35,435 bases of DNA from Myxococcota bacterium (GCA_963169575.1 CAUJGH010000040.1:1-35435); one strand, 5' to 3'; shown: positions 6,142 to 35,435, counted from the first letter of the stretch. Made by a program: numbers and translations. The notes: a model not told the origin generated them from the sequence alone.

Positions 6142-6867
6142 CTACGGCGAACCCTCCGAGATGAATGCGACGCAATCCTTAGTACCGTCCGTCGTATGAA
6201 TTCGCCTGAGACTCTCGACCTTTCCCCAGAATCGCTCCCATGCCTCGCTCTGGAAACGTGAAGATCCCATGCCCATGGCACCTGGCGCACGACTGAGAAG
6301 GGGGAGGTAACGATGAGAGTCGTCGACGATGACCAATCCGCCCGCTCGCAGCACCTCGAGCGCCCAGAGCGCACAGTGATCCCGATTGGGGCCATCCACG
6401 AGCACCACGTCGACGGACCGCCCGCGCAGGGTCGCCTCCGCCGCTCCGGTCATTTTCTCAGCGTGAGGATCGACGCGCAGATACTCGACTGCATCGCGCC
6501 CTGCGTTCCTCAACTTGTCTGCGATTTGTCGATGCCATTCTTCGTGATGCTCAATGCTGATCAACGCGCCTACCCGATCGGCGAACCAAAGCGTGCTCCG
6601 ACCAGATCCGAATTCGACGAGTAAATCGGTGGGCTGAAGCCAGAGATCGAGAAACCGCACCATCGAATGCGTCAACCAAGGCTCATCGGGCTTTCTTAAC
6701 TGGTACCATGCCACTCCCAGCCGATCAGCGACGTATTGGAGAGTCCAATGGGGCCTAGGGCGCGGCCAAAGCCGCAACCACTGGGGTACTCGGTTGGGCG
6801 CCGGTGTCTCCGCATCGGTAGAGCGCAGAGTCTCCGATTCGATCCGTTTCAGGGAGTCTTTTTCCAC
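6142..6867 (-). CDS. Class I SAM-dependent methyltransferase (O-methyltransferase-like).
   Basis: 241-aa ORF with a GTG start. Motif I is LVEFGSGRSTLWFA, followed by an acidic-loop segment ISIEHHEEW and VDVVLVDGP. It sits between Wzy and a GT4 gene. Confidence 0.7.
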   Translation of the reverse strand: MEKDSLKRIESETLRSTDAETPAPNRVPQWLRLWPRPRPHWTLQYVADRLGVAWYQLRKPDEPWLTHSMVRFLDLWLQPTDLLVEFGSGRSTLWFADRVGALISIEHHEEWHRQIADKLRNAGRDAVEYLRVDPHAEKMTGAAEATLRGRSVDVVLVDGPNRDHCALWALEVLRAGGLVIVDDSHRYLPLLSRAPGAMGMGSSRFQSEAWERFWGKVESLRRIHTTDGTKDCVAFISEGSP

Positions 6868-6930
6868 TTCATTCTCCGCGACGCACGGTGGGCCTCGCGA
6901 TCGGAAGATCGATGGCAGCTCGAACCACGA

Positions 6931-10697: not shown

Positions 10698-10718
10698 GTT
10701 CCCGATCTCCAGGGGCGA

Positions 10719-12212: not shown

Positions 12213-13621
12213 CGATTGTTCCCCTCTTCACCCATCTGCCGACCGACGGCGGATTTGACGGCCCGGAACTTACCATTGGGCTCGCGCGGGATCTCCTGCA
12301 GCCGGACGAGCTCGATGCGGATCTGGTCGCCGACACGCGAGCGGATCTCCTTGATCAGCCCGGCCTCGGCGCGCGCATCGAAGGACGGGCGCGGGACGAT
12401 GCGGACCTCGATCGCCTCGGGCGTCTCCTGGACGATCTGCGCTTCGGCGACGTCGAGCTGCTCCTTGAAGATGTGGTCGAGGCGGCCGATCCAGCGGCCG
12501 TCGGGGGTCACGACGTAGTCCTCGATGCGGCCGTCGACGTCGAGGAAGACGTCGCCGGGGCGGCCGCAGGGGCAGGGGCGCTTGGCGCGGGTCCCGACGT
12601 CGCCGATCCGGTAGCGGATGAAGGGCGTGGCATCGTTGGCGAAGCCGGTGACGAGCAGCGGGCCGCGCACGAAATGCTCGTTCTCCTCTTCGATCTCGAC
12701 CTCGACGATCCCGAACTCCATGTCGACGTGGAGCAGGCCCTCGCGGCAGGCGGTCATGGAGACGGCGAACTCGCTGGTGCCGTAGCGGTCGAAAATCGGG
12801 GCGGCGAAGGCGTGCTCGATGGTCTCGCGCTGGAAGGCGAGCAGCGATTCCGAGGAGGTGAAGATCGCGCGGAGCTTGCCGGCCGGGAGCGGGCGGCCGG
12901 CGTCGAGCATCGCGCGGCCGAGCAGGTGGAGCGACGAGGGATAGCCCTGGACATAGGCGGCGGGGATCGCGTGGAGCGCGTCGATGTAATGCGGAAGGTT
13001 CGCGCGCGTCATGTGGTAGAGGGAGAAGAGCGTCTGGCGGCCCCAGGCGTTCGTCCGCCAGTAGGGTGGGCGCGCCTGCGCCATCGGGACGAGCAGCTGC
13101 CCGCCGAACGAGAAATGCGGATCGAACAGGCCGATGCCGACGCTCGTGCGCAGGCGCCAGACGGCAGCGTATTCCTCGGCGAGGGCTTCTGGCGTGTACC
13201 AGAGCGGGAGCGCGGTTCCGGTGGTTCCGCTCGTCTTGCCCTTCAGCAGGCGGCGGGGCGGGATGTCGGCGGCGATGAAGGACTCGGGATCGACGCGATA
13301 GTCGGCCTTCTCGAGCACGGGAAAGGCCGCGAGCATCGCCTCGATCCCGCGCTGCGGATCCGCTTCGCAGCGGGGCTCGGGGAGCGCGAGCTTCGCATAA
13401 TGCGGGACGTGCCGGCGTGCACGCGAGGCGAGCGCGAAGAGCCGCTCCTGCTGGATGCCGTGCAGCCGCTCGCGGGAGGAGCGGCCGGATTCCTGCCATT
13501 CCCGCAGCCGGCGATGAAAATGGGGCGTGAAGCGCGTCCGGGCGCGGCGGTAGCCCGCCCAGGTACAAGCCAGGTTCTGGAGCGGGACCGGCATCGCTGC
13601 GTAGAGGCCGTCCAGCGTCAC
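12209..13621 (-). CDS. Phenylacetate-CoA ligase family (PaaK / CapK / F390-synthetase-like) adenylate-forming enzyme.
   Basis: This is the C-terminal 470 codons of the 872-aa track ORF. The real start is taken as GTG 13621, which forms a GTGA overlap with the upstream stop. It has the AMP-binding P-loop KGKTSGTTGTALPLWY, plus FDRYGTSE and a C-terminal NGKFRAV. The upstream 400 codons of the track ORF are Arg/Pro/Gly junk overlapping another gene. Confidence 0.8.
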   Translation of the reverse strand: MTLDGLYAAMPVPLQNLACTWAGYRRARTRFTPHFHRRLREWQESGRSSRERLHGIQQERLFALASRARRHVPHYAKLALPEPRCEADPQRGIEAMLAAFPVLEKADYRVDPESFIAADIPPRRLLKGKTSGTTGTALPLWYTPEALAEEYAAVWRLRTSVGIGLFDPHFSFGGQLLVPMAQARPPYWRTNAWGRQTLFSLYHMTRANLPHYIDALHAIPAAYVQGYPSSLHLLGRAMLDAGRPLPAGKLRAIFTSSESLLAFQRETIEHAFAAPIFDRYGTSEFAVSMTACREGLLHVDMEFGIVEVEIEEENEHFVRGPLLVTGFANDATPFIRYRIGDVGTRAKRPCPCGRPGDVFLDVDGRIEDYVVTPDGRWIGRLDHIFKEQLDVAEAQIVQETPEAIEVRIVPRPSFDARAEAGLIKEIRSRVGDQIRIELVRLQEIPREPNGKFRAVKSAVGRQMGEEGNNR

Positions 13622-21326: not shown

Positions 21327-22435
21327 CGCGCGAGCCCCGCGAGCTCGCTCGTCTTGACGACGCGGGTCGTCGGCTGCGGATGCGAGGCCGCACGGATCCA
21401 GCGGAAGCACATCGTGCCCTGGGCATGGCCGACCGTGTTGATCCAGTTCGGCAGGCCCGGATCGTCGTGGGCGACGACGATGCGGACGGAGCCGTCCTTG
21501 GCGTAGACGGCCGTGTGTTTGTTGACGTGGATCGTGTAGTAGCGGTAGTCGAGGGATTCCATCCAGTGGTTGTCGAGCTGGAAGTTCCACGACTCGCATT
21601 CGGGGGGCGTCGCTTCGATGACGAGGGCCTCGTCCGGCGCGAGCTGCCAGTAGGAGTGGTAGTAACAGATGTTGGGATCGCCGCCGGCGCCCATCGAGAT
21701 CGAATCGTCGAATTTGGGCAGCTGGTTGACGTGCTTGTCGCGGAAGCCCTTCGCCCAGTTCGAGAAGAGCGCGGTGCAGCCGACGACCATGCCGGCGGCC
21801 TGCTTGAGGCCGGCATCCATCGCCTCGGGCGTCAGCAGCGCCGGGCGGCCGCTGCCGCCGATGCGCTCGATCACGAGCTCTGCGGGGATCTCCTTCGAGC
21901 GGTCGAGATGGGTCTGGCGGACGATCAGCGCCGTCGTCTGCGGCGTCATGCGCAGCCAGTTGCCGGGCTTCGGCTCGCAGGAGAGGACGATCTCGAAGCG
22001 GCCGTCGGGGCCGATCTGCATGTCCTTCGCGTCGAGATGGCCGCCCTGCTCGGAGTCGCCGGTCGAGGCGACGCCGGGCGATTGCGTGCCGAAGTCGAGG
22101 TAGTGGATCGTGTTTCGCTTGCCGCGGATCCGGTACTCGTAGGCGCCGCTGATGTTGGCGTGCTGGTAGTAGTTGTCGGGGTTGTCGGCGCCGATCTTGG
22201 CGGTCTCGTGGACCGGGCGGTTCAAGACGGGAGCGGCGGGATCGGCGTGCTCGATGAAGGCTTCGAGGGCGGTGCGCGCGAGGCGCGTGACGTAGCGGAA
22301 GCCCTCGGCGCGATCGAGCGGATCGGTCGGCGAGCCGTCCGCGAGGATCGTCTGGCCGGCGGACTTGATCGCGTCGCAGAACTCCTCCCAGGAACGGCCG
22401 GTCATGAGTCGCTCGCGCGGGGATTGCTCGGTCAT
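21323..22435 (-). CDS. DUF1214-like protein (370 aa).
   Basis: The start is ATG 22435 (MTEQSPRERLM), with SD AGGGAGGA 7 nt upstream. The sequence is well balanced (RAEGFRYVTRLARTALEAFIE...NWINTVGHAQGTMCFRWI). The family name is from memory. The track start at 22837 adds junk. Confidence 0.6.
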   Translation of the reverse strand: MTEQSPRERLMTGRSWEEFCDAIKSAGQTILADGSPTDPLDRAEGFRYVTRLARTALEAFIEHADPAAPVLNRPVHETAKIGADNPDNYYQHANISGAYEYRIRGKRNTIHYLDFGTQSPGVASTGDSEQGGHLDAKDMQIGPDGRFEIVLSCEPKPGNWLRMTPQTTALIVRQTHLDRSKEIPAELVIERIGGSGRPALLTPEAMDAGLKQAAGMVVGCTALFSNWAKGFRDKHVNQLPKFDDSISMGAGGDPNICYYHSYWQLAPDEALVIEATPPECESWNFQLDNHWMESLDYRYYTIHVNKHTAVYAKDGSVRIVVAHDDPGLPNWINTVGHAQGTMCFRWIRAASHPQPTTRVVKTSELAGLAR

Positions 22436-22445
22436 CTTGGTGTCC

Positions 22446-22475
22446 TCCCTGTCGTCTTCATCCCTGTCGTCTTCG
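22446..22475. repeat. 2 x 15-bp tandem direct repeat overlapping the RBS of the DUF1214-like gene.
   Basis: The units are tccctgtcgtcttca / tccctgtcgtcttcg (14/15 identical). The repeat lies in the 184-bp divergent region between the DUF1214-like gene and argC. Confidence 0.8.
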
Positions 22476-22619
22476 TCGTCGGGCTCGGGGCCGGGGGCGG
22501 CGCGGCCCCCTGCGGCGCCGACACGGTAGGCGCCGAGGCGGCGCGCGGCAGCGACGACCGCACGACGGCAGCGGCGCTCGAGTCCAGTCGCGGCGCCTTT
22601 GCTAGCGTCCGCGCCCATC

Positions 22620-23579
22620 ATGTCGAAGCCCCGGATCTTCATCGACGGCCATGCCGGAACCACCGGCCTGCGCATCCGCGAGTGGCTCGCGCCGCGAACG
22701 GACGTCGAGCTGCTCGTACTCGGCGAGGCCGAGCGCAAATCGGACGCCGCGCGGGAGCGGGCGATCGCCGAGGCGGACGTGTCCGTCCTCTGCCTGCCGG
22801 ATGCCGAGGCGGCGAAGGCCGCCGAGTGGGCGCACAAATCCGGTGGTCGCCTCGTCGACGCCAGCTCGAACCACCGGGTCGCCCCCGGCTGGGTCTACGG
22901 CTTCCCCGAGCTCGCCCCCGGCCAGCGCGAGGCGATCGCGAAGGCGCAGCTCGTCTCGAATCCCGGCTGCTACCCGACGCCCTTCATCGCGCTCGTCCGC
23001 CCGCTCGTCGACGCGGGCCTCGTCCGAACGGGCGCGCCGGTCTCGATCCACGGCCTCTCGGGCTACACCGGCGGCGGCAAGGCCCTGATCGAGCGCTGGG
23101 AGGCGAAGGACCAGGGCCGCATCGGCCTCCATTACGAGGCGCCCTACGCCCTCGAGCGGATCCACAAGCACGTCCCCGAGATGCACGTCTACAGCGGCCT
23201 CGCCGCCGCGCCGCAATTCGTGCCCGCCGTCGGCCCCTTCGCCTGCGGCATGCGCGTCGCCGTCCCGCTCCACGCCCAGCTGCTCGCTCCGGGCGCGACG
23301 GGCGAGGCGCTCTGGCGCTGCCTCGCGGATCGCTATGCGGGCGAGCGCTTCGTCTCGGTCGCGCCCTTCTCGGGCCCCGATCCGATCGACGACTTCACGC
23401 TCGATCCCTGCGCCCTGAACGACACGAACGGCCTGCGACTCCACGTGCTCCCGAATCCCGCCGGCCATGTCCTGCTCGTCGGAATCCTCGACAACCTCGG
23501 CAAGGGCGCCTCGGGCGCGGCGATCCAATCGCTGAACCTGATGCTCGGCCTCGACGAGGGCGCAGGCCTGCCCGGCTGA
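22620..23579 (+). CDS. argC: N-acetyl-gamma-glutamyl-phosphate reductase (short, type-2 ArgC).
   Basis: The sequence starts MSKPRIFIDGHAGTTGLRI. The active-site motif is SNPGCYPT, and the C-terminus has DNLGKGASGAAIQSLNLMLG. The ATG at 22620 is preferred to the track TTG at 22599. Confidence 0.9.
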   Translation: MSKPRIFIDGHAGTTGLRIREWLAPRTDVELLVLGEAERKSDAARERAIAEADVSVLCLPDAEAAKAAEWAHKSGGRLVDASSNHRVAPGWVYGFPELAPGQREAIAKAQLVSNPGCYPTPFIALVRPLVDAGLVRTGAPVSIHGLSGYTGGGKALIERWEAKDQGRIGLHYEAPYALERIHKHVPEMHVYSGLAAAPQFVPAVGPFACGMRVAVPLHAQLLAPGATGEALWRCLADRYAGERFVSVAPFSGPDPIDDFTLDPCALNDTNGLRLHVLPNPAGHVLLVGILDNLGKGASGAAIQSLNLMLGLDEGAGLPG

Positions 23580-23811
23580 TCGGCCCCTTCCCGGGCGCTC
23601 GGGCGCCTGATCTTCGAAGGCCGAAACCCGAAGTCCGAAGGCCGACGCGCGCCGACCGCCGACGCCCGCTCCCCGACGCAGAAAATTCCCCGTCCTGAGT
23701 GAACCGCTTCACAGTGGCCCCTCATGATCCGGATCACTCTCGACTCGCATTGATCGTGCAGGACCCCGTCGGACGGGAAATCCGATCGATCGGCGAATCA
23801 GGAGTGGTGTC

Positions 23812-24423
23812 ATGCAGAGCGAGCAGAAGCGGAAGAACGACAACGATCCCGAGCGCGACCGGGCCTGGGCCGAGCGGGTCCGGGCCGGTGACCAGGCGGC
23901 CTTCTCGGAGATCTACGCCGCCTTCTTCCCGCGGGTATACGCCTTCATCTATAAGCGCATCCGGGACCAGGCCGAGGCGGAGGACCTGACCCAGGAGACC
24001 TTCGTCCAGCTCTACCGCTCCCTCCCCTCCTACGAGGGCCGCTCGAGCCTGCTGACCTGGACCTTCGGCATCGCCCACAACGTCTGCTCCCGCTACTTCC
24101 GCCACTGCTCGCGCTGGATGGTCGGCCCGCGCGACGCCCGCGAGATCGAGGACCATCCGAGCGATGCCGCGATCGAGAGCCGGATCGACGCCACCCATCT
24201 GCTCGAGCGCTGCGACGAGGTCCTCGAGAACGGCCGGCGCAGCGCGCATCGGGAGATCTTCCGCCTGCGTTATGCGGAGAGCCAGTCGATCCGCTCGATC
24301 GCGCAGCAGGTCGGGAAATCGAGCGAGGCGGTGAAGGTCAGCCTGCGGCGGAGCCGGAACCTGCTCGTCGACGGCGTGCCCGAGCTCGAGATCATCCTCG
24401 ACACCGTCGCGCAGGGGGCCTAG
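23812..24423 (+). CDS. ECF-type RNA polymerase sigma-70 family factor.
   Basis: 203-aa ORF. Region 2 is FPRVYAFIYKRIRDQAEAEDLTQETFVQLYRSL. The region 4 HTH is SIRSIAQQVGKSSEAVKVSLRRSR. An SD AGGAG lies upstream. Confidence 0.85.
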   Translation: MQSEQKRKNDNDPERDRAWAERVRAGDQAAFSEIYAAFFPRVYAFIYKRIRDQAEAEDLTQETFVQLYRSLPSYEGRSSLLTWTFGIAHNVCSRYFRHCSRWMVGPRDAREIEDHPSDAAIESRIDATHLLERCDEVLENGRRSAHREIFRLRYAESQSIRSIAQQVGKSSEAVKVSLRRSRNLLVDGVPELEIILDTVAQGA

Positions 24424-24760
24424 CACGCAAGTACCGGCGCCTGGTCCCCGGAAACGCGCGAGAAATCGCCCCGTGTCGCAGCCTCTGCCCTCCGGGTCCG
24501 AGACTGGGCGAAGGTTCGGAATCGGGCGCGATCGATCGGGAATCCGCGTGAAGTCGTGGGAATCCGTTCATGATCGGGGTAGGGTCCGACTTGCGGCGCC
24601 TCCCGTGCGAAACCGAGATCAGCGGGTCCGTGGCCTCTCCAGACTCGAATCCTTCTGCAGAGCTCGGATCCAGCGCGGCTGCGGATCGCACCCCAGCAGC
24701 CCATCTCCGCGCGAGGCGAGACCGTCGTCGGCTGGGATCGGCCGATGAGGAGCTCCCCCG

Positions 24761-27700
24761 ATGCAAACCATCCGATCTCGCCTCCTCCCGCGCCTCTTCC
24801 CGCACCTTCTCGCTCGCATCCCATCCGATCGCCGATCCGAGGTCCGCGTCCTGCGATCCCTGATCGGCTCTTCTCTCCTTGCCATGCCGATGGTCTTCCT
24901 GCTGGGACCGGAGCCGGCGAAGGCCCAATGCGCCGCCGCGCCGAACCCGATCGTCTGCGAGAACGCGCTCCCCGGGACCAGCGACTGGCGGCTCTCCGGT
25001 CCGATCTCGACGGACGTGGGAGGCCAGATCCAGGGCTTCGCTTCGGCCACGAGCGTCGATACGGGCAGCTCGATCGATCTGCTGGTCACGGTCGCCGGCA
25101 ATGCCGCCTGGAATCTCGAGATCTATCGCATGGGCTGGTACGGCGGCGACGGCGGCCGCCTGCTGCATTCCGCGAGCGGCCTCCCCGGCATCGCCCAGGG
25201 CGGCTGCACGAACCCGGCCCCGATCAATTTCTCTCGTGTCTGCAACTGGTCCGTCGCCTCCGGCGGCTACACGCTCGCGATCCCCGCGACCTGGACGACC
25301 GGCCTCTACCTCGCCAAGCTGGAGACGACCTCCACGGGCCACCAGGCCTACGTCCCCTTCGTCGTCCGCGAAGACGATCGCGACGCGGTCTACTACTACG
25401 AGCAGGCCGTGATGAACTATCAGGCCTACAACCGCTACCCGACTTCGGATGCCGTTTCCTTCTACACGAGCCAGACCGGCTTCCAGCCCTGGGAGAAGAC
25501 CCTCTCGTTCAAGCGTCCCTATTCCAGTCAACTCGTGCTGCGCAACGGCGAGAGTCCGTTCGGTTCGGCAGGCGATGGCAGCGGCGGCTTCTTCACCTGG
25601 GACTTTCCGATGATCCAGTGGCTCGAGCGCGAAGGCTACGACGTGTCGTACGCGACGAACATCGACCTGCACACGAATCCGGAACGCGTCCTCGACTTCT
25701 CCGCCATGATCTCCGTCGGCCACGACGAGTACTGGTCCGACGAGATGGCGGTCGCTGCCGCGGCCGCTCGCGACGCCGGCGTCGACCTCGCCTTCTTCGC
25801 GGGCAATCACGTCTTCGGAACCGTCGCCTACGACCCGATCGCGCGAACCATGACGGGGCTCACGAAGGCCGGAACGCCCGGGACCGGCACACCGTCGGGC
25901 AACGATTGGTGGGACGCGCCGGACTATCCCGACAAGCGCAAGCGACAGGCGCTCCTCGGCCAGGCGAATACCGGCTGCTGCGCCCGCAAACCGATCACCT
26001 ACGCGAACGTGCCGTGGATCGTCGCGGAGGAGAGCCACTGGGCATTCGCGGGAACCGGATTCCAGAACGGCGACAGCGTCCCGGCTCTGCTCGGCTACGA
26101 GCCCGACGCCTACGATCCGAGCTTCGAGGGCGCCTGCAGCCAGGACTTCACCCTTCTCTCCGCATCGCCCTTCGACCCCGTCGCGGCCGGGGCCGCGACC
26201 AATGCGGACACGAGCTGGCTCAATACGTGGCCGCTCGCGGCCGCTCACACCACGATCTACCAGGCTCCCCGCGGCGCCTGGGTCTTCTCGGCGGGGACGA
26301 CGGACTGGCCCTGGGGCCTCGCGACGCCCCTCGCCGCGGGCGGGCCGCCCTACGATGCAGCGATCGGCAGCGGCGATCCGGCGCATCGAGGCTATGTCGC
26401 CAGTCTTTCCGGCAGCGGAAACGGCAGCCTCGTCCAGGATGGCGGACTTCCCGCCTGGCGCGTCGACGGCAGTGCCGGTCGGGCGTCGTGGACCCGTAAG
26501 GTCGGCCTCGACGGCAGCGAGGCGCAGGGTGCGCTTCGTGGGAATACGCTGACGACCGTCTTCCGGATGGTGTCGGGCGGCTTCATCACGAACTACTACT
26601 CGACACGAACCCGCCGCTACCTCCCGACCATCGGCCTCGACACCGTCAGCGGCGATCTCCAGGTTCAGCTCGAAACCGACGCCGGACTCGGCCTCCCCAT
26701 CTCCCTCGCCTCGGGCGCCGCCGCAACCGCCTATCACAGTCATACCGTCCAATTCGACGCCGCCAGCGGGTTGGCGACCTACTCCTTCGACGGCTCGCCG
26801 GTGGCGACCTGGAGCGGCTCGCCGAGCACCGCCGAGGGCGTGCACTTCGGCCAGGGCTCGAGCGGGATCGCCGGGATCGCCCACTTTCGAAGCGTCGACT
26901 TCGCTCCCGACGTTCCGCTCGCCCCCGATCCCCGCATCCAGACGCTGACCCGGAACGTCCTCGATGCGATGACCGCGCCCGCCGAACTCGAGCGCGCGAT
27001 CTTCTACGACGCGCAGGCCTGCGATGCGCCCGCGACCGCCGCCGGCGACTCCACGGGCACGCCGAGCCGCATGGGTTGGACGCCCAGCCTGAGCCTCGCG
27101 GGAACCGGATCGCTCACGACGGACTCGGATGGTGGCGAGACCGTCCCCGCCTGGCTCGCCGACGGCAGCGCGGGCCGCGCGACCTGGGACTGGATTCCGA
27201 GCGCGGACCTGGAGGCCCATGTCGCAGCGAACGGCTGGCGGATCGAGAGCCGACTGAGAGTGCTCGACGGCGGCTTTCTGACCGACTACTACGCGGACGG
27301 GAGCCGGCGCTTCATGCCCATCCTCCGGCGCGATCCGAACGGCGACCTCGCCGTCACGCTCGAAGGCGGCGGCAGCCACGTGCTCGCGACCGGCAGCGCC
27401 GCCGACGACTACCACGCCCACGTCGTCCTCTTCAATCCGCTCACGCAGACCGCGACCTACTTCTTCGACGGAGCCGCGATCGAAACCTGGAGCGGCAACG
27501 CGACCACGCAGCGACAGATCACTTTCGGCCAGGGATCGACGGCGATCGCCGGCCGAGCACACTATCGGTCGATGTCGTTCCAGCCCGCCCCCGAGCCCGG
27601 AATCGGCGGCGCGCTGGCATCCGGCCTCGTCGCTCTCGGATGGCTCGCACGCCGCGGCCCGATCACCGGCCCGATGGCGGGCCGGCGCCGAGGACTGCGA

Positions 27701-27775
27701 CGCGAACGAAAGCGCGCCGGCACGACGCCAGACCTCGAGTCGCGAGACGGCATCGAGTCGGTCCTCGAAGGATGA
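24761..27775 (+). CDS. PEP-CTERM-anchored secreted protein: an N,N-dimethylformamidase beta-subunit-like (DUF6605-like) domain plus two tandem LamG/jelly-roll-like repeats.
   Basis: 1004-aa ORF with SD GAGGAG 8 nt upstream and a signal peptide (LIGSSLLAMPMVFLLGPEPAKA). N-terminal domain motifs are LEIYRMGWYGGDGGR, YVPFVVRED, MNYQAYNRY, WLEREGYDVSYATNIDLH and GHDEYWS. Two ~175-aa repeats each end in FGQGS-x-IAG-x-AH-x-RS. A C-terminal PEP-CTERM signal is present. Confidence 0.8.
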   Translation: MQTIRSRLLPRLFPHLLARIPSDRRSEVRVLRSLIGSSLLAMPMVFLLGPEPAKAQCAAAPNPIVCENALPGTSDWRLSGPISTDVGGQIQGFASATSVDTGSSIDLLVTVAGNAAWNLEIYRMGWYGGDGGRLLHSASGLPGIAQGGCTNPAPINFSRVCNWSVASGGYTLAIPATWTTGLYLAKLETTSTGHQAYVPFVVREDDRDAVYYYEQAVMNYQAYNRYPTSDAVSFYTSQTGFQPWEKTLSFKRPYSSQLVLRNGESPFGSAGDGSGGFFTWDFPMIQWLEREGYDVSYATNIDLHTNPERVLDFSAMISVGHDEYWSDEMAVAAAAARDAGVDLAFFAGNHVFGTVAYDPIARTMTGLTKAGTPGTGTPSGNDWWDAPDYPDKRKRQALLGQANTGCCARKPITYANVPWIVAEESHWAFAGTGFQNGDSVPALLGYEPDAYDPSFEGACSQDFTLLSASPFDPVAAGAATNADTSWLNTWPLAAAHTTIYQAPRGAWVFSAGTTDWPWGLATPLAAGGPPYDAAIGSGDPAHRGYVASLSGSGNGSLVQDGGLPAWRVDGSAGRASWTRKVGLDGSEAQGALRGNTLTTVFRMVSGGFITNYYSTRTRRYLPTIGLDTVSGDLQVQLETDAGLGLPISLASGAAATAYHSHTVQFDAASGLATYSFDGSPVATWSGSPSTAEGVHFGQGSSGIAGIAHFRSVDFAPDVPLAPDPRIQTLTRNVLDAMTAPAELERAIFYDAQACDAPATAAGDSTGTPSRMGWTPSLSLAGTGSLTTDSDGGETVPAWLADGSAGRATWDWIPSADLEAHVAANGWRIESRLRVLDGGFLTDYYADGSRRFMPILRRDPNGDLAVTLEGGGSHVLATGSAADDYHAHVVLFNPLTQTATYFFDGAAIETWSGNATTQRQITFGQGSTAIAGRAHYRSMSFQPAPEPGIGGALASGLVALGWLARRGPITGPMAGRRRGLRRERKRAGTTPDLESRDGIESVLEG
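27590..27658 (+). other. PEP-CTERM sorting signal (exosortase recognition motif).
   Basis: PEPGIGGALASGLVALGWLARRG: Pro-Glu-Pro, then a hydrophobic helix, then a basic cluster. Confidence 0.7.
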
Positions 27776-28380
27776 CGACGTTCACGGGCCCCGATGGAAG
27801 ACCTCGCTGCCGATGGGCCGGCGCTGCTCCGGAATTTCTCGCCTATCACGACGAGGAATGGGGCTTCCCGGTCGCCGACGATCGCCGCCTCTTCGAGAAG
27901 CTGAGCCTCGAGGCCTTCCAGTCCGGCCTCAGCTGGCGGACGATCCTCGCCAAGCGCGAGAACTTCCGCGCCGCCTTCCACGGCTTCGATTTCGAGCGCG
28001 TCGCCCGCTTCGGGCCGCGCGACGTCGAGCGCCTGCTCGGCGATGCCGGCATCGTCCGCCATCGCGGCAAGATCGAGGCCGTCATCCAGAACGCCCGCTG
28101 CGCGAAGGAGCTCGTCCAGCGGGAAGGATCCCTCGCAGGCTTCTTCTGGCGCTACGAACCCGGGCACTGGCCCGCCTCGCAGGCCCAGACCGCCTCGACC
28201 TCGCCCGAATCGATCGCCCTCTCGAAGGATCTGAAGAAGCTCGGCTGGAAATTCGTCGGCCCGACGACCGTCTTCGCCTTCATGCAGGCCATGGGCCTCG
28301 TCGACGACCACGCCCCCGACTGCACGATCCGCCCCGCGGCCGAACGCGCCCGCCGCACCTTCGAGCGCCCGCTCGGTTGA
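27772..28380 (+). CDS. tag: DNA-3-methyladenine glycosylase I.
   Basis: The sequence is MTTFTGPDGRPRCRWAGAAPEFLAYHDEEWGFPVADDRRLFEKLSLEAFQSGLSWRTILAKRENFRAAF... There is an ATGA overlap with the upstream stop. It is the C-terminal part of the 434-aa track ORF. Confidence 0.9.
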   Translation: MTTFTGPDGRPRCRWAGAAPEFLAYHDEEWGFPVADDRRLFEKLSLEAFQSGLSWRTILAKRENFRAAFHGFDFERVARFGPRDVERLLGDAGIVRHRGKIEAVIQNARCAKELVQREGSLAGFFWRYEPGHWPASQAQTASTSPESIALSKDLKKLGWKFVGPTTVFAFMQAMGLVDDHAPDCTIRPAAERARRTFERPLG

Positions 28381-28839: not shown

Positions 28840-30477
28840 TCAAAGTCCGGCGCGAAGCAGCGGCAGCGCCCTTTCGACCCCCATCGTCGCGAGCAGGGTC
28901 GTCAGCTTCGGGCCCTTCGGACGCGCGATCAGGAGCTCGTAGACGTAGGGATAGAAGTCCTGGGCGGTGAGCGACGTGCCTTCGCACATCGTCTTCAGAT
29001 GCGGAACGAGGTCTTCTTCACGGCAATCGGGCGCCGTCTCGAGCACGCGCACGAGGCGCGCCAGGATCTCTCTGGGCTCGCCTTCGAGCCTCTCGCTCGC
29101 GGGCGTCTCGCGGATCCGGTAGCGGAACTCGTCGGGCGCATGGTCCACGATCCAGTTCCAGACGCGCCCGGCGCGCTCGCGCAGCCGCGCGGCCTCCGCG
29201 TCGTTCGCGACCTCACCGGCCCTGCGATAGTGGGCGAGCGTGCGCTCGACGTCGCCATCGTAGACCTGCAGCGTCATCGAAAGGGGCCGGAACGAGGGCA
29301 CGCGTACGGGCGTAGAGCCCGGCTCGATCCGCCCCGGGACGAGCCGCGAGAGCTCGATCGTCCTGCGAACGACGGCGCGCTTCTTGTCGTTCTTGCCGTC
29401 GTCGGCCGCATGCGCCGTCGCGACCGCGCGGTCCCAGTCTTCGTAGAGCTTGATGACGTCGGCGTCGAAGGAGATCTGGAACTCGGAATTCGGCCGCTGC
29501 GACGCGAAGATCCAGCGCAGCATCTCGGGCTCGTAGACCGCGAGGCAATCGGCGACGGTGACGGCGCCGCCCGCCGAGCTCGAGATCTTTCCGCCGCCGC
29601 CCTTGATGCGCACGAAGTCGTAGGGGACGTATTCGGGGGCGGTCCAGTCGAAGACGGGGCCGACGATCTGCTTCGCCGTGTCGTAGCTGCCGCCGGCGGT
29701 GCTGTGATCCTTGCCGCCGGGCTCGAAGCAGACGCCCTCGAAGGCCCAGCGCATCGGCCAGTCGATCCGCCAGGGCAGCTTGACGTCACCGCCTTCGCGC
29801 AGATCGACGCGCGTCTTCGTCCCGCAGTCACGGCATTCCATGTCGACGAACCAGTCGCCGTCCCAGCCGAAGGCGATGCGGTCCCGCCCGCAGGCCTTGC
29901 AGAAGCCGGCGAGCGGCAACCAGTCTTCGGCGAGCGGCTCGGTCCGGAAACCGTCGAGCACGGCGCGGATCACGTCCTTCTTCTCGAGCGCGCGGCGAAT
30001 GCCCTCGGCATAACGTCCGGCGCGGTAGGCCTTCGACTGGCGGATGAACTCGGGCGCGATGGCGAGGGGCGCGAGGCTCGCCTCGAAGACCGCGATGTGA
30101 TGGCTCGCGTAGCTGTCGGCGGGCGGGACGGGGCTCGCCGGATCGGCGGCGAAGGGATCGGGAACGTCGGCGACGCTGCGCCGCAGGTTTTCCGCGAGCA
30201 TGGCCTGCTCGGGCGCGTCGGCCGGGACCTTGCGGAAGACGTCGAAATCGTCCCAGGAGTAGATGAAGCGGACGTCGATGCCCTGGTCGCGCAGGGCCCG
30301 GGCGACGAGGTCGACCGTCATGACCTCGCGGAAGTTGCCGACATGGACGACGCCGGAGGGCGTGATGCCCGCCGCGACGACGATCGGCCGGCGATCGGGA
30401 TGCGCCGCGACGACCCGCCGCGCCGCGATGTCCGCCCAATGCGAGAAATGAGGATCGTACTGCTGCTGTTGCCCCAT
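28840..30477 (-). CDS. lysK: Lysine--tRNA ligase, class I.
   Basis: The HIGH-type motif is PSGVVHVGNFRE and the KMSKS-type motif is GGGKISSSAGG. I chose the start ATG 30477 (MGQQQQYDPHFSHWADIAARR), giving 545 aa. The track start at 30540 adds 21 aa. Confidence 0.85.
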   Translation of the reverse strand: MGQQQQYDPHFSHWADIAARRVVAAHPDRRPIVVAAGITPSGVVHVGNFREVMTVDLVARALRDQGIDVRFIYSWDDFDVFRKVPADAPEQAMLAENLRRSVADVPDPFAADPASPVPPADSYASHHIAVFEASLAPLAIAPEFIRQSKAYRAGRYAEGIRRALEKKDVIRAVLDGFRTEPLAEDWLPLAGFCKACGRDRIAFGWDGDWFVDMECRDCGTKTRVDLREGGDVKLPWRIDWPMRWAFEGVCFEPGGKDHSTAGGSYDTAKQIVGPVFDWTAPEYVPYDFVRIKGGGGKISSSAGGAVTVADCLAVYEPEMLRWIFASQRPNSEFQISFDADVIKLYEDWDRAVATAHAADDGKNDKKRAVVRRTIELSRLVPGRIEPGSTPVRVPSFRPLSMTLQVYDGDVERTLAHYRRAGEVANDAEAARLRERAGRVWNWIVDHAPDEFRYRIRETPASERLEGEPREILARLVRVLETAPDCREEDLVPHLKTMCEGTSLTAQDFYPYVYELLIARPKGPKLTTLLATMGVERALPLLRAGL

Positions 30478-30637
30478 GCCGGGCGCCGCCCTCCGCGCCG
30501 CGGAGTGTGGCAGCCCCGACCCCGCACGCAAGGCCGACACGAATCGCCCCGGAGCCCCAATCGCTCGCTCGATCGCGGCACGGCCCCCACCTCAAAGCCA
30601 GGACCGGGCACGCCCTTGCGAGAACCGCAGCGCCCGA

Positions 30638-30796: not shown

Positions 30797-31411
30797 TCAG
30801 ACCGAAGCGCGTGCCCCCTTCGGCACGACCGGCCGATCCGCCGCCTGATCCCGGCGCGACTCCGCCTTGTTGTAGAGGACCTGGACGTCCCGCGTCGCCG
30901 TGAGCAGGCGCGAATAGAGCCGCAGCTTGAGGGCGTCGAGCATCGCGAAGGAGAAGAGCGCGAAGAAGCTCGACGAGAGCGCGAGCGCCAGCGAGATGAC
31001 CTCGAGGCCCTCGTCGCTGTTGTGCATCGAGACGAAGTTGAGAAGCATGCCGCCCGTCGTCCCGACGAAGCCGAGCGGGGGCAGCAGGTTCGCGTACATC
31101 CCGATGAGCCGCGCGTAGTTGTGCTCGTACTCGTTCATGACGTACTGGCGCGACGCGTCGAACACGAAGTCCGAGGGCTGTCCGTCGCTCTCGTTCTCGC
31201 GCAGCGACTTCTGGAGGATCCGGACCATCAGGATCGCGAGCGGCTCGGCGCCTCCCGGTCGATCCGAATGTCCCCGCCGCAGCTCGTCGTTGGAGGCCCG
31301 GCGCGTCGCCGACCAGGCGGACACGACGGCGCGCAGGCCGTTCGAGAAGGGGATGAGCACCGCGATGAAGACGCCCGCGGTCACGATCACCGGCAACAGA
31401 TCACTCGACAT
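30797..31411 (-). CDS. MotA/TolQ/ExbB proton-channel family protein.
   Basis: 204-aa ORF with SD GGGGAG 6 nt upstream. It has three predicted TM helices. The motif LLPPLGFVGTTGGMLLNF resembles the ExbB/TolQ TM2 signature LG(L/F)xGT(V/T)xGM. Confidence 0.7.
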   Translation of the reverse strand: MSSDLLPVIVTAGVFIAVLIPFSNGLRAVVSAWSATRRASNDELRRGHSDRPGGAEPLAILMVRILQKSLRENESDGQPSDFVFDASRQYVMNEYEHNYARLIGMYANLLPPLGFVGTTGGMLLNFVSMHNSDEGLEVISLALALSSSFFALFSFAMLDALKLRLYSRLLTATRDVQVLYNKAESRRDQAADRPVVPKGARASV

Positions 31412-31441
31412 TCCGTACTCCCCGAGACGCTCGCGCGTCGA

Positions 31442-31984
31442 CTAGCTGTTCCACTTCTGATCGCGCAGCATCTCGAGCGCCTCGCCGAGGGAGCGCTGCT
31501 CCCCGACCGGATACTCGACCAGCATGTTCTCGCGGCCCTCGAATCGCTTCTCGAGGTCGTCGATCGACTCCTGGACCTTGCGCGTGTAGCGCATGTTCGC
31601 GAGCAGCTGGGCCTTCATGAAGCGCAGGTTCGCGTCGAGGGCCATGACCTCGGGATGCGAGCTCTGCCAGTCGGGCGCGAGCAGCGGTTCGAGATGGCGG
31701 GCCATGTACTCGGCGATGAAGTTGTCGAGCAGCACGACGCTCCGGCTGTCGTTGCGGTCGGACAATCCCTGCATCGTCTCGTCGAGATGGATCAGGTCGC
31801 GCCAGGCGCGCATCAGATCCGTCCGGCGCTGCGAGAGCGCCTCGCCGCCGAGCGCGGTCTCCTCGATCGCGGCCTGCTGAGCCGCCTCTGTGCCGCCCGG
31901 ACCTTCGTCGGACGCACAACCCGAGAGCTGGAGCGCGAGCAGCATCGGGGCGGCACCCAGGGCCAGTTTCATCGTTCGTCGCAT
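31442..31984 (-). CDS. Lipoprotein of unknown function (180 aa).
   Basis: The ATG at 31984 has SD GGAGGGA 5 nt upstream. The sequence starts MRRTMKLALGAAPMLLALQLSGCASDEG, with lipobox L-S-G-C. The rest looks helical. I recognised no family. Confidence 0.65.
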   Translation of the reverse strand: MRRTMKLALGAAPMLLALQLSGCASDEGPGGTEAAQQAAIEETALGGEALSQRRTDLMRAWRDLIHLDETMQGLSDRNDSRSVVLLDNFIAEYMARHLEPLLAPDWQSSHPEVMALDANLRFMKAQLLANMRYTRKVQESIDDLEKRFEGRENMLVEYPVGEQRSLGEALEMLRDQKWNS

Positions 31985-32033
31985 CGGATTCCCTCCGCGG
32001 GCGCGCACGCCCGCTCGCTAGTCGGTCGTTCGC

Positions 32034-34145
32034 CTACTCGTCTGCCGCTTGCGTTTCCCGGCCCGAGCCCTCGTGGTAGAGGCGGCGGAGCAGCGTGTGC
32101 ATCGGATGCTCGCGCTGGCTGCGGAGCGCCGGCGCGAGGTCTTCGCTCTCGACGACGGCGCGGAACAGCGGCAGCGCCCGGGCACGGGCCGTGATCTGCT
32201 TGTCGAGCTTCGCGAGCTGGCGACCGCCGTCTTCGAGCTCGCGGGCGACGCGCTGGCTCTCGCTGGTCCCGAACGCCGCCGTTTCCGACATCTCACCGTC
32301 GGCCGGCGAAGCGGGCGGCGAACCGCCGCGACCGCTGCGCTGCTCGGCGAGGCCGGTCAGCTTGCGGGCGAGGCCGTCGCGCTGCTGCTTGAGGTCGGCG
32401 AGGCTCTTCTCGAGCTCGCCGAGGCCCTTCGCATCGGCGAAGCCCATGTACATGAGCACGAGCTCGTCGGAGAGCGCCCGGCGATAGACGTCGATCGTCT
32501 TCGAGCCCGCGCCGTTCTGGGCGATCCAGGAGCCGGCGTGTCGCGAGCCGGCGACGTGCTCGGCGATCGGCCGCGTGATCGCGAGGAAGTCGTTCGCGCC
32601 GCCGCGCCGCTCGAGCGCCGTCGTCAGCGCCGGCCAGAGCATGCGGTCGAAGGGGAAGGCGCGCAGGGCCATGTGGTAGCGGGAAGCCGCGAGCTGGATC
32701 TCCGCCGGCGCCGGGTTCGCGATGCCGTAGGCGATGAAGGCGTCGCCGTAGCCGCGCGCCGCTTCGTAGGCCGCGAAATACGCCGAGTCCGGGACCCAGC
32801 GCGTCGAATCGGCGACCGCATAGCGCTCGAAATGCGCCAGATATCGGGCGAAGAGCCGCGCCGCATTGCGGACCAGTTCCGCCGCCCGGGCCGGATCTTC
32901 GGTCGCTCGCGCGAGGTAGTAGTCCGCGCTGTTGAGGGTCGCTTCCTGGATCTCCTCCCAGAGCGCACGCATCGACAGGAGGTAGGACTCCTCGCCGCTG
33001 TTGCGGAAGCCCAGCTCCCGCCAATCGCCATTGCGGGCCTCGTGGAGCGAGGCATAGACCTGGTAGGCGCCTTCGATCGTGAACGGGAGCTCGACGTCGG
33101 GGTCGACGCCGAGGCGCTGCTTGGCCGCGTGGACCTCGCCCATCTGCCGCAGGATGCGCATGTAGACCGCCGCCTCGCCGGACGGCGTCTCGGCGAGATC
33201 GGCCGCCCGGGCATAGGCCGCGCCGGCGGCGCGGATGGAGGCGACCGACTCGTCCGAGAAGCCTTCGCTCGCGAGCAGTCCGCGGCTCTTGTCGTGGGCC
33301 TTGCTCGCTTCGAAGAGCACGAGGGTGAAGGTCAGGCTGCCGCCATCGGATTCGGGGCCTTCGAGGCGCGCGACGATCCGCTCGAGGTAGTCGCGGACCG
33401 ACGCCTCGACCGGGATCACCTCGGGATAGGCGCCGACGCGCTGATCGCCGAGCAGGCGGACGATCGCCGCGAGCGAGTCGAGACCGAAGCCCATGCCCAT
33501 CTCCTGGCTGCGCAGGAGGATGAGTCGCGCGACGTTCTCGTAGACGTACGGGAGGGCGGAGACGAAGCCCGAGTTCGCGGCCTGCGAGAGCGAGAGCGCC
33601 TGCAGCGTGTCGAAGGGCGACTCGAGCGGGACGACGACGTCCATCCAGAGCGAGAGGACGTGCTTCACGAACTCGGTGTCGCTGCCGCGTTCGAGCGCGC
33701 GATGGGCCTGGATGTAGTGGTACCAGTAGCGATCCTCCTGGCGGCTCTTGCCGTCGGAGAAGGCCTCGATCGTGTCGACGCTGTTCTCGAGATGCGCGGG
33801 CTCGCGCGCCGCGAGGTACTGGAGGAACTGGGCGATCGCCCGGCGGCGGGTCTGCGCGAGGTCCTCGCCGTTCTTGGCGCCGCGGTCCTCGAGCGAGCGC
33901 TTCACGTACGCGTCGAGCGAGAGGCCGACCTCGCGCTCGTAACCCGCGATCCGCGCCGCGAGCGACTGGGCGTCGGCCGAGCTGTAGATGTAGGCGTAGT
34001 CGAGATAGTCGTCCCAGGTCGCCGACCGCGCGGTCGTCGCTCCGCCGAGGGCGCCGGCGGCCAGCACGAGCGCGAAGCCCAATGCCAGACGCGCCAGACG
34101 CAGGCCGAGCCCGCTCTGTCGCCATCCCTTCATCATCGTCGTCAT
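32034..34145 (-). CDS. Secreted 703-aa predominantly alpha-helical protein with a C-terminal coiled-coil-like region; function unknown.
   Basis: The start is ATG 34145 (MTTMMKGWRQSGLGLRLARLALGFALVLAAGALGGATTARSAT), which reads as a signal peptide. The composition is balanced and GC3 is high. The track start at 34280 would overlap the upstream gene. Confidence 0.65.
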   Translation of the reverse strand: MTTMMKGWRQSGLGLRLARLALGFALVLAAGALGGATTARSATWDDYLDYAYIYSSADAQSLAARIAGYEREVGLSLDAYVKRSLEDRGAKNGEDLAQTRRRAIAQFLQYLAAREPAHLENSVDTIEAFSDGKSRQEDRYWYHYIQAHRALERGSDTEFVKHVLSLWMDVVVPLESPFDTLQALSLSQAANSGFVSALPYVYENVARLILLRSQEMGMGFGLDSLAAIVRLLGDQRVGAYPEVIPVEASVRDYLERIVARLEGPESDGGSLTFTLVLFEASKAHDKSRGLLASEGFSDESVASIRAAGAAYARAADLAETPSGEAAVYMRILRQMGEVHAAKQRLGVDPDVELPFTIEGAYQVYASLHEARNGDWRELGFRNSGEESYLLSMRALWEEIQEATLNSADYYLARATEDPARAAELVRNAARLFARYLAHFERYAVADSTRWVPDSAYFAAYEAARGYGDAFIAYGIANPAPAEIQLAASRYHMALRAFPFDRMLWPALTTALERRGGANDFLAITRPIAEHVAGSRHAGSWIAQNGAGSKTIDVYRRALSDELVLMYMGFADAKGLGELEKSLADLKQQRDGLARKLTGLAEQRSGRGGSPPASPADGEMSETAAFGTSESQRVARELEDGGRQLAKLDKQITARARALPLFRAVVESEDLAPALRSQREHPMHTLLRRLYHEGSGRETQAADE

Positions 34146-34177
34146 CCCCTCAACTCCCCTCTCAAGGCGTCGACCGC

Positions 34178-35422
34178 CTAGCGCGATGCGTGCCGGCCCC
34201 CGCCCTGAAGACATTCGAGGGCGTATCGAAGCTCGGCACAGCGATCCTCGACGCGGCGGGACGGTGCCCGGTCGATCCACATCAGGAACGCGTTCAGGTT
34301 CTTGGTCTCCACGAATCGGTAGACGCCCTTGCTACTTACGCATTCGCCCTGCGTCTTTACGGCCGCCACGACGGCCTGCTTGAGGCGATCCTCCTCGCGA
34401 TCGGTCACGCAGGCCGCGAGATCACCGAGCGGAACGCCCGAGAGTCCGGGCTTCGGGCTGCTGCCGCCTCCGCTGCCACTGCCCGGCGGCGGCGCGGCCC
34501 GATCGGCACGGGCGACGACCGGGGGCGCGGCTGCGGCACGCGGCGCGGGCGAAATCGGCGCGGCCGCCATCTCGATGCGCGGGGCCGGCCGCGCGCCAGA
34601 GGCCGTCGGCGACGGGCGCGGGGCCGCGGCGCCTCGGGTCGGGACGCTGCTTGCGGGGGGCCCGTCCATCACCGGCGCGGGCATGCCGGCCGGGGCGACA
34701 CCCGCGATCGGCCGACCGCGCGGCGCCGACGGCGCACGGGCCGCCGCGACCCGGAACGCCCGCTCGGGCGCCGCGTCGCTCGGGACGTCGATGGCGGGCG
34801 CGGCCGGGGCGGCCATGCGCGGCATCGCGCGCAGATCGGGACGAACGGCATTGCGGGCGACACGGTCGGGCTGGGGTGTGGGAGCGGCACGCTCGGGGGC
34901 GACGGCGACGGCCTCGATCTGGACCCGCGGCTTCTCGATCGGCACGGGCCGCTCGCGCACGGCCCGCTCGATCGGCGGCGCCGGCACGACCGGCAGCGGC
35001 TCGATCTTCGCGATCTCGGGCTTGACCCGGACCGGCTCGGGCTCGGGCTTCGCCGCCGGCGGCGGAGGCGGCGGGGGCTCGAGCTCGGCGACCATCGGCG
35101 GCGGCTCTGGCACGACGGGTTCGGGCACGACCGGCTCCGGAACGACGGGCTCCGGCACGATCGCTTCGGGCTCGACCGGAAGCTCCACCATCGGCGGCAC
35201 GAGCGGCGGCGCCGACTCGAGCATCACGACCTCGAGCGCCTGGCGCTCGGCCTCCTGGCTCGCGAGGCCTGCGATGACGAAGCCGAGCATCCCGAAGACC
35301 GCGAGCACGCCGAGCGCCGGACCGGCGAAGCGCCGGACGACCGCGGCCGGGCCGCCGGCGCCTGCCTCGCCCAGCAGCGCGTCGAGATCCTCGCGAAAGC
35401 CGCCGCGAGCGACGCGATGCAT
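34178..35422 (-). CDS. Single-pass membrane protein with a long Pro/Ala-rich periplasmic spacer and a 4-Cys C-terminal domain (TonB-like architecture, non-TonB C-terminus).
   Basis: 414-aa ORF. The TM helix is GPALGVLAVFGMLGFVIAGLA. A PEPVV repeat and PPPPPPP tract follow. The C-terminus is LAACVTDREEDRLKQAVVAAVKTQGECVSSKGVYRFVETKNLNAFLMWIDRAPSRRVEDRCAELRYALECLQ. Confidence 0.65.
   Translation of the reverse strand: MHRVARGGFREDLDALLGEAGAGGPAAVVRRFAGPALGVLAVFGMLGFVIAGLASQEAERQALEVVMLESAPPLVPPMVELPVEPEAIVPEPVVPEPVVPEPVVPEPPPMVAELEPPPPPPPAAKPEPEPVRVKPEIAKIEPLPVVPAPPIERAVRERPVPIEKPRVQIEAVAVAPERAAPTPQPDRVARNAVRPDLRAMPRMAAPAAPAIDVPSDAAPERAFRVAAARAPSAPRGRPIAGVAPAGMPAPVMDGPPASSVPTRGAAAPRPSPTASGARPAPRIEMAAAPISPAPRAAAAPPVVARADRAAPPPGSGSGGGSSPKPGLSGVPLGDLAACVTDREEDRLKQAVVAAVKTQGECVSSKGVYRFVETKNLNAFLMWIDRAPSRRVEDRCAELRYALECLQGGGRHASR
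35108..35182. repeat. 15-bp tandem repeat (4-5 units) encoding (PEPVV)n.
   Basis: The units are ggcacgacgggttcg / ggcacgaccggctcc / ggaacgacgggctcc / ggcacgatcgcttcg / ggctcgaccggaagc. The minus-strand translation is VPEPVVPEPVVPEPVVPEP. Confidence 0.8.
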
Positions 35423-35435
35423 CTCCGAGCGGAGC

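Follow-up and report, generated by a model that had tools for sequence, protein, structure and literature searches.

A five-gene set shared by Myxococcota and Desulfobacterota probably encodes a Ton/Tol-like trans-envelope energy-transducing module

Introduction

Which envelope machine does a MotA/TolQ/ExbB-type membrane protein serve when its usual partner appears to be missing? The question is raised by one end of a 35,435-nt stretch of DNA from a Myxococcota bacterium (GCA_963169575.1, CAUJGH010000040.1:1-35435; hereafter the window), where four genes at 30,797-35,422 encode a Pro-rich protein with a membrane anchor (A), a large helical protein with a signal (B), a lipoprotein (C) and a three-helix membrane protein (D). 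A first-pass annotation had read these as an envelope operon with an orphan ExbB/MotA-like channel. To our knowledge, few systems (Ton, Tol-Pal, the motors of gliding and type IX secretion and, as proposed, the vWA transducers) supply the outer membrane, which lacks an energy source of its own, with energy from the inner membrane, and a recognizable motor joined to three periplasmic or outer-membrane parts without a described family, in two phyla, would add a new client process. Here, we find that these four genes belong to an operon of five, U4-A-B-C-D, and that the fifth gene, which in relatives lies just past the window edge, is predicted to supply the apparently missing motor subunit. Taken together, the five genes probably make up a Ton/Tol-like trans-envelope energy-transducing module.

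Results

Four of the five operon genes lie inside the window

An open reading frame (ORF) scan placed all four genes on the minus strand as described in the first-pass annotation, with D at 30797..31411 (204 aa), C at 31442..31984 (180 aa), B at 32034..34145 (703 aa counted from its ATG) and A at 34178..35435, where the ATG-initiated ORF covers 34178-35422 and the gene is truncated at its 5′ end by the window end. The same intergenic gaps of 32, 49 and 30 bp follow from these coordinates, and the Shine-Dalgarno sequences picked out earlier are in place, GGAGGGA 5 nt 5′ of the C ATG and GGGGAG 6 nt 5′ of the D ATG; the B ATG is preceded by a G-rich GAGAGGGGAG..GAGGGG. Simple sequence scans detected no promoter-like or terminator-like sites inside the four-gene block. 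In two wastewater metatranscriptomes, single contigs from relatives ~90-95% identical span the D/C, C/B and B/A junctions, and contig coverage falls from ~5-15 to <1.5 immediately 3′ of D, which fits one transcript terminating after D. These RNA contigs across all three junctions, together with the synteny kept among relatives (see below), support the proposal that A-D form one operon.

The reading frame of A is open to the last base of the window, 35435, and in the closest relative (locus L007, whose B is 96% identical) its start lies 22 codons further upstream. The length of 414 aa first given for A is therefore too short: the protein is ~436 aa in relatives, and the window covers residues 23-436. 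Directly upstream of A, relatives (L004-L007 and others) carry a 155-aa gene, U4, whose stop codon overlaps the A ATG as ATGA.

U4 has a single N-terminal transmembrane (TM) helix, WLFSFVDLAFLMLIAMTQ, with the core WLFSFVDLAFL (WLFSFVDLAFLxLI). The helix Asp is invariant in 30/30 clade sequences and in 26/26 remote members, which retain a WLFxFxDLAFLLLI helix, and it aligns to ExbD D25 and to the pore-helix Asp of MotB. ExbD (PF02472) is consistently the top Pfam family of U4. It is matched by 4 of 30 clade members with a best E-value (E) of 1.4e-3 and by 11 of the 26 remote ones, where the best match (E 4.8e-6) covers positions 12-114 of the 128 in the model, with all matches in both groups below the 25.4-bit cut-off. 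Six of the 26 remote members also match MotB_plug, and IMG/NCBI annotates some of the remote members (from Desulfuromonas, Desulfobacteraceae and Candidatus Magnetomorum) as ‘biopolymer transporter ExbD’. Against PDB sequences, the clade profile found no match, and a broadened U4 profile matched the MotB pore helix (W..ADL..LLLI) best, though without significance (E 0.5); the link to ExbD is thus made through remote family members and not through the clade profile. By these sequence affinities, U4 is probably a divergent ExbD/TolR/MotB-type subunit.

D is a probable, divergent partner for U4

Proteins of the MotA/TolQ/ExbB superfamily are recognized by three helices, of which TM1 and TM2 are joined by a cytoplasmic loop and TM2 is rich in Pro and Gly, and by pore-lining hydroxyls (T145 and T178 in TolQ). 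The window D matches the Pfam model MotA_ExbB (PF01618) at 21.4 bits, under the 22.9 cut-off, and 27 of 31 D orthologues match it weakly (best E 1.8e-5); a Desulfuromonas orthologue, which is related to the D profile at E 6.7e-18, has a precomputed full-confidence match to this model. Searched against 177,635 solved-structure sequences, the D family profile found only TolQ (E 0.008) and MotA (E 0.56), over TM2-TM3. TM2 reads LLPPxGFxGTTGGM, with LLPPxGFxGT invariant or near-invariant among orthologues. T118, which aligns to TolQ T145, is Thr in 27 and Asn in 4 of the 31 orthologues, and position 148, which aligns to TolQ T178, is Ser or Thr in 31/31. D thus combines a family-model and solved-member match with the TM2 and hydroxyl-residue features, and the earlier assignment of a three-helix MotA/TolQ/ExbB-type protein stands: as judged from its family and profile matches, D belongs to this superfamily.

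D and U4 also vary together. Among 51 loci assessable on both flanks, 45 have both genes, 5 have neither and 1 has D only, and U4 never occurs without D. From these relationships we conclude that D and U4 represent, at the level of sequence, a divergent ExbB/ExbD-type pair. The view of D as an orphan channel therefore does not hold, with U4 directly upstream of A, joined to it by the ATGA overlap and co-varying with D. The accompanying claim that the operon encodes no ExbD/TolR/MotB partner is correct within the window and incorrect immediately past 35435, as seen in relatives; it is an artefact of the window end. The first-pass annotation had further named an upstream ExbD gene together with a TonB_C match in A as the marks of an ordinary Ton system. 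The ExbD-like gene is present in relatives and A has no TonB_C match, so this is not an ordinary Ton system despite the ExbD-like neighbor.

The five genes stay together through rearrangement in two phyla

Exact-sequence contig look-ups for A, C and D returned nothing or only contigs of 1.5-2.3 kb, and genomic context was obtained via homologues of B. The resulting comparison set comprises 75 species-level genomes, all of them Myxococcota metagenome-assembled genomes (MAGs), in which A-D are syntenic; this bears out the expectation that the four families co-occur and indicates a gene grouping beyond chance. U4-A-B-C-D is contiguous in 45/51 assessable Myxococcota species loci, and C adjoins B in 67/67 assessable loci.

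Three Desulfobacterota loci, L084, L087 (Desulfuromonas sp.) and L089, hold all five families in the order C-D-U4-A-B; L084 and L089 are metagenomic contigs, and their homologues were confirmed by hidden Markov model searches. For L087, hhalign related B at E 1.9e-31, D at E 6.7e-18, the A C-terminal domain at E 1e-5 with its four Cys aligned, and C at E 1.2e-6 with a probability of 90.8%. U4 orthologues lie directly downstream of D orthologues in L084, L087, L088 and L089. The Myxococcota order is a rotation of the classical exbB-exbD-tonB-like order, which places D at the far end of the operon and hence made it appear orphaned. The retention of five genes through rearrangement, across two phyla, is strong evidence that they are one functional unit.

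Many of the operon-bearing MAGs (L009, L015, L021, L022, L024 and others) bear the title ‘uncultured Spirochaetaceae/Spirochaetales bacterium’, yet by their B proteins they fall among Myxococcota MAGs, and the bins are probably mislabelled. A literature search on assembly GCA_002869635 found nothing.

A has the layout of TonB and TolA

In layout, A resembles TonB and TolA: an N-terminal helix is followed by a Pro-rich linker and then by a globular domain at the C-terminus. The clade as a whole conserves the N-terminal sequence MSARHIEQHYGFGAARI, and the YGFGAA motif is present in 41/49 loci with U4 and in 0/5 without it. A hydropathy scan places the single TM helix, ALGVLAVFGMLGFVIAGLA, at 35261..35317 on the minus strand (residues 36-54 in the numbering of the window ORF), as had been described. 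Among 60 orthologues, the helix has no conserved sequence or polar residue. The earlier remark that it has neither Asp nor the TonB His motif is accurate for the window protein, and no His is conserved among orthologues. Eight residues past the helix and directly ahead of the linker, a beta-strand-like motif, ALEVVMLE (35216..35239, minus strand), recurs in nearly all A orthologues as IEVVMLE, IQIVQLE, VQIVAFQ or LEIVMLE, 8-14 residues past the helix. This is a candidate ‘motor box’, a strand after the helix that has been described for TonB and TolA (PMC12204202).

The linker, putatively periplasm-spanning, occupies 34448..35212 on the minus strand, as judged from composition and repeats in the translation. 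It varies in sequence and length among orthologues, whose full lengths range from ~350 to 470 aa. In the window protein, Pro makes up 25% and Ala 20% of the spacer (residues 59-330), which has a P7 run at residue 116, in agreement with the ~270-aa Pro/Ala-rich spacer and poly-Pro run first noted; the repeat given there as (PEPVV)x4 is instead PEAIV(PEPVV)x3, at residue 85.

The C-terminal domain (~85 aa, about residues 326-414; 34181..34447, minus strand) is predicted to fold as a helix, three strands and a helix. Its last 77 residues contain exactly four Cys (338, 361, 395 and 404), all invariant in two family alignments (A4 and A6), which would be paired in disulfides. No Pfam or NCBIfam family was found for A, its C-terminal domain matched no PDB sequence, and the best Foldseek hit of this domain had E 0.07 and a TM-score of 0.25, and the top 50 included neither a TonB nor a TolA chain; the domain is indeed unlike the TonB C-terminal domain, as had been proposed. 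An identity with TolA domain III was rejected (hhalign probability 0.2% against TolA). No vWA Pfam match was found in the domain, which at 85 aa is predicted to have the helix-three strands-helix arrangement. In 5.8 billion clusters, only 205 proteins carry the four-Cys domain, all of the A family.

B is a TPR-like protein and C a lipoprotein

B is the most conserved component of the module, with 70-96% identity across many MAGs; all of its 488 homologues are named hypothetical and none has a Pfam domain. The AlphaFold2 model (mean predicted local distance difference test score, pLDDT, 80.6) is entirely helical, with a signal-like helix at the N-terminus and, at the C-terminus, a coiled-coil hairpin formed by residues 572-605 and 628-666, which supports the first-pass description of a 703-aa, all-helical protein with an N-terminal signal and a C-terminal coiled coil. 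Foldseek against the PDB found only superhelices of tetratricopeptide repeats (TPR), such as Ctr9, APC subunits and OGT, at TM-scores of <=0.2. In profile searches, residues 470-516 matched designed consensus TPRs (E 1e-4) and residues 566-657 gave weak, non-significant coiled-coil matches (E 0.1-0.5); neither the Pfam TPR model nor any other Pfam or NCBIfam family was reached. B is thus modelled as a TPR-like solenoid with a coiled-coil hairpin. Many invariant polar residues raised the idea of an enzyme, and the fold search, which returned only TPR scaffolds, gave this no support. Direct comparison showed no relation to CpoB, and B was rejected as a CpoB homologue.

C is a 180-aa lipoprotein with the lipobox LSGC, as first described, and its Cys23 is ~90% conserved in the family alignment (A8). 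In E. coli, lipoproteins without Asp at +2 are sorted to the outer membrane; C has no Asp at this position, which suggests, by analogy with that rule, that it is targeted there. No Pfam or NCBIfam family and no OmpA-like domain was found in C, no PDB sequence matched it significantly, and no relatives were detected outside the C family.

A proposed motor and force transducer

These features can be assembled into a mechanism. D (ExbB/TolQ/MotA-type) and U4 would form a proton-driven inner-membrane motor, with D presumed to be its pentameric part and, by analogy, a 5:2 stoichiometry of D and U4. A would be the force transducer, with its helix docked on the D/U4 motor and with its cytoplasmic N-terminal motif, YGFGAAR, and post-helix beta-strand engaging D and U4. 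Motor action would pull the Pro-rich linker across the periplasm, and the disulfide-stabilized four-Cys domain would pass force to B and/or C at the outer membrane. As to what this force is used for, an envelope-maintenance role of the Tol kind is weakly supported as somewhat likelier than import of the Ton kind, given a dedicated lipoprotein and TPR/coiled-coil protein, the lack of a TonB-type C-terminal domain and, in the loci with examined gene tables, the lack of a TonB-dependent transporter gene in or next to the operon.

Several observations weigh against this reading. The RNA evidence consists of assembled contigs of ~90-95% identical relatives, in which DNA carry-over is possible, and none of the window proteins A-D exceeds a curated Pfam or NCBIfam family threshold. 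A His/SHLS (Ser-His-Leu-Ser) motor-binding motif was not found in the A helix of the window protein or its orthologues, and the A C-terminal domain was modelled with moderate confidence (pLDDT 77). When U4 was compared by hhalign with single E. coli ExbD and TolR sequences, only the helix aligned, without significance. A full HMMER scan of 1.84 billion proteins found only 145 representatives related to U4, which indicates a small family, and did not reach canonical ExbD directly. Every contact among D, U4, A, B and C is one that we infer. Lastly, five to seven Myxococcota loci (drawn from L033, L037, L040, L050, L056, L057 and L061) have A-B-C with neither U4 nor D nearby, five of them forming one clade in the B tree, and A-B-C may work without the D/U4 stator or with a stator encoded elsewhere.

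The loss of YGFGAA from A in stator-less loci fits this motif as a motor contact. In the MAG PL23a_bin.25, a stator-less copy (L037) coexists with another locus, L080, in which U4, A and the start of B run up to the contig end, a pairing that recalls, as an analogy, several TonBs sharing one ExbBD. We scanned ten ORFs neighboring the stator-less L033 and L056 for an alternative stator, and none matches MotA_ExbB or ExbD; they include a secretin (L056, upstream) and a TPR protein (L033), and the rest have no Pfam family. Searching 1.3 Mb of flanking DNA from 80 loci with E. coli TolQ, TolR, TolA, TolB, Pal, CpoB, ExbB and ExbD by phmmer returned a single OmpA-like match, in L030.

The module resembles Ton, Tol-Pal and vWA systems in outline

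The first-pass annotation had held that the architecture recalls Ton and Tol while the set of parts matches no described system, and our comparisons agree on both counts. As in Ton systems, ExbB-type and ExbD-type genes are joined by a gene for a single-helix protein with a Pro-rich linker and then by one for a TPR protein. In the Vibrio TonB2 operon, ttpB-ttpC-exbB-exbD-tonB2-ttpD, the stretch exbB-exbD-tonB-ttpD is mirrored by D-U4-A-B of Desulfobacterota, and TtpD2 is a 425-aa TPR protein essential for Vibrio TonB2 function (PMC6957404). Unlike Ton, the C-terminal domain of A is not TonB_C, its helix does not carry the His/SHLS motif, the loci examined show no linked TonB-dependent transporter, the lipoprotein C has no Ton counterpart, and D and U4 fall under the curated family thresholds.

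Tol-Pal (TolQ-TolR-TolA-TolB-Pal-CpoB) likewise has a motor and a transducer that spans the periplasm, together with an outer-membrane lipoprotein and a periplasmic protein of the TPR/coiled-coil kind, and TolQ is the best solved match of D. However, neither a TolB propeller nor an OmpA-like domain is present in A-D or U4, and phmmer with E. coli TolB and Pal found no match to the module in 80 loci. B, at 703 aa, is unrelated to CpoB, and the C-terminal domain of A is unrelated to TolA domain III.

A third comparison is with the proposed periplasmic force transducers of the vWA type, which are encoded beside tolQ/tolR-like genes and an uncharacterized TPR gene (Williams-Jones et al., Mol Biol Evol 2025, PMC12204202). 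These share with A a helix, a linker that is disordered or rich in Pro, and a C-terminal domain other than that of TonB, and with the module the adjoining tolQR-like motor and TPR genes. They differ in that the A domain is an 85-aa four-Cys alpha/beta domain and not a vWA domain, in that A lacks the SHLS histidine which vWA proteins keep, and in that the module includes a lipoprotein. Their taxa are Proteobacteria, Planctomycetes, Verrucomicrobia, Bacteroidetes and Rhodothermaeota, as against Myxococcota and Desulfobacterota here; the same paper does not mention cysteines or disulfides and refers to Myxococcus only with regard to AglZ. These precedents for C-terminal domains unlike that of TonB, and for motor operons with a TPR partner (PMC12204202, PMC6957404), count in favor of a trans-envelope energy-transducing module.

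Within the Myxococcota themselves, the Agl-Glt gliding machinery of Myxococcus has a TolQR-type motor (AglRQS), TonB-like single-helix, Pro-rich proteins (GltG and GltJ), TPR proteins and lipoproteins or other outer-membrane parts. The Glt gene set, however, is far larger; A, B and C share no detectable Pfam family with Glt proteins, and the operon has no further Glt-type gene.

The module thus lacks the features that define TonB and TolA (helix motif and C-terminal fold), Tol-Pal (TolB, an OmpA-like Pal and CpoB) and the vWA class, and would work like them in outline; lacking these, it is filed under none of Ton, Tol-Pal and vWA. No U4-A-B-C-D module was found in the literature searched. It may be, at somewhat short of an even chance, that U4-A-B-C-D is an undescribed class of motor-driven periplasmic force transducer that stands beside these three, in which a divergent ExbBD-like motor would pull, by way of a Pro-rich protein, on a disulfide-locked four-Cys domain, whose clients would be a dedicated and highly conserved 700-aa TPR/coiled-coil protein and a lipoprotein, not a TonB-box transporter or TolB-Pal. 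If true, Myxococcota and Desulfobacterota would have a new outer-membrane process that is powered by protons. With only five genes, the module lends itself to genetic and structural dissection. The module is common in wastewater, biofilm and sediment Myxococcota without cultured representatives, and the Desulfuromonas and Desulfobacteraceae relatives may give a culturable route to tests.

Alternative explanations of the operon

A more specific form of the energy-transducing module is a functional analogue of Tol-Pal that tethers or stabilizes the outer membrane, for example at division, with D, U4 and A in the roles of TolQ, TolR and TolA, C in that of Pal and B in that of CpoB or TolB. Beyond the match of D to TolQ and the lipoprotein gene in the operon, A is about the size of TolA (421 aa), B joins TPR-like repeats to a coiled coil as CpoB does, the surroundings are of a housekeeping kind (lysS adjoins in close relatives), the module is expressed in community RNA, and in loci with examined gene tables the operon neither contains nor adjoins a gene for a TonB-dependent transporter. 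Without a gene for a TolB-like beta-propeller, an OmpA-like peptidoglycan-binding domain in C, or any relation of B to CpoB and of the A C-terminal domain to TolA, we regard this analogy as unlikely, if well short of far-fetched. Distinctly less probable is that the module energizes import or export in the manner of Ton for three neighboring secreted proteins, U1-U3. The Pro-rich linker of A is TonB-like, and in about half of the Myxococcota loci U1-U2-U3 immediately precede U4 and share its orientation, while in others they lie at <=10 kb; U1 has weak PSD2, PSCyt3 and PSCyt2 matches, U2 has Laminin_G_3 and cytochrome-c-like motifs, and U3 has a twin-arginine signal. However, the Desulfobacterota modules lack U1-U3, as do about one-third of the Myxococcota loci within 10 kb, and neither a TonB-dependent transporter gene nor a TonB-type C-terminal domain is present.

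The remaining explanations separate A-B-C from an ExbB/ExbD-type motor. The stator-less loci, most of them from a single clade of the B tree, could mean that A-B-C forms a passive scaffold or anchor in the periplasm with no need of energy input, and that D and U4 serve another client. This we consider quite improbable: the start-stop overlap of A and U4 points to translational coupling, the five genes stay together despite permutation of the operon between phyla, the N-terminal motif of A is lost exactly where the stator is absent, and the stator-less L037 shares its MAG with L080. Scarcely credible, finally, is the channel without an ExbD/TolR/MotB partner, perhaps with A as its axle, that the first-pass annotation had put forward. 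The window itself contains no gene of that type, and vWA proteins have been proposed to replace TolR in this way (PMC12204202); yet the A helix has no Asp, and the synteny of U4 upstream of A in relatives, together with its co-variation with D, refutes this version for the clade. A Ton/Tol-like energy-transducing module, of which the window holds four fifths, thus remains the probable reading.

Neighboring genes and the rest of the window

The conserved genes U1-U3 precede U4 in L007 (3018-8128) and in L004-L006, a place that corresponds to just beyond 35435. U1 (~400 aa) has a CxxCH motif in addition to its weak PSD2/PSCyt3/PSCyt2 matches, U2 (~730 aa) combines CxxCH with Laminin_G_3 (LamG), and U3 (~510 aa) has a twin-arginine (TAT) signal and no Pfam family. 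The trio is in turn preceded by a gene for a divergent DsbD; in other loci the trio is inverted ~5 kb downstream or absent. A functional link of the module to U1-U3 in Myxococcota is possible.

Directly downstream of D, the window encodes a class I lysyl-tRNA synthetase (lysS; 28840-30540, minus strand; PF01921, E 2e-108), a minority form in bacteria, whose position next to D is kept in closer relatives and not in distant Myxococcota loci. Rfam and tRNA scans of the window were both empty. Three long ORFs without a Pfam match (772-1056 aa) lie at 9990-12518 (plus strand), 21380-23698 (plus strand) and 24392-27562 (minus strand), some of which may be spurious at 70% G+C. In a 434-aa ORF at 27076-28380 (plus strand), only residues 247-417 match DNA-3-methyladenine glycosylase I; the real gene is probably ~190 aa, with the Arg-rich N-terminal part an over-extension of the ORF. 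At the other end of the window, positions 1-9000 have 55-59% G+C, compared with ~70% elsewhere, with a boundary near 8.4-9.0 kb, and encode two GT4 glycosyltransferases, a methyltransferase and a DUF6259 protein; this region looks like a horizontally acquired surface-polysaccharide island.

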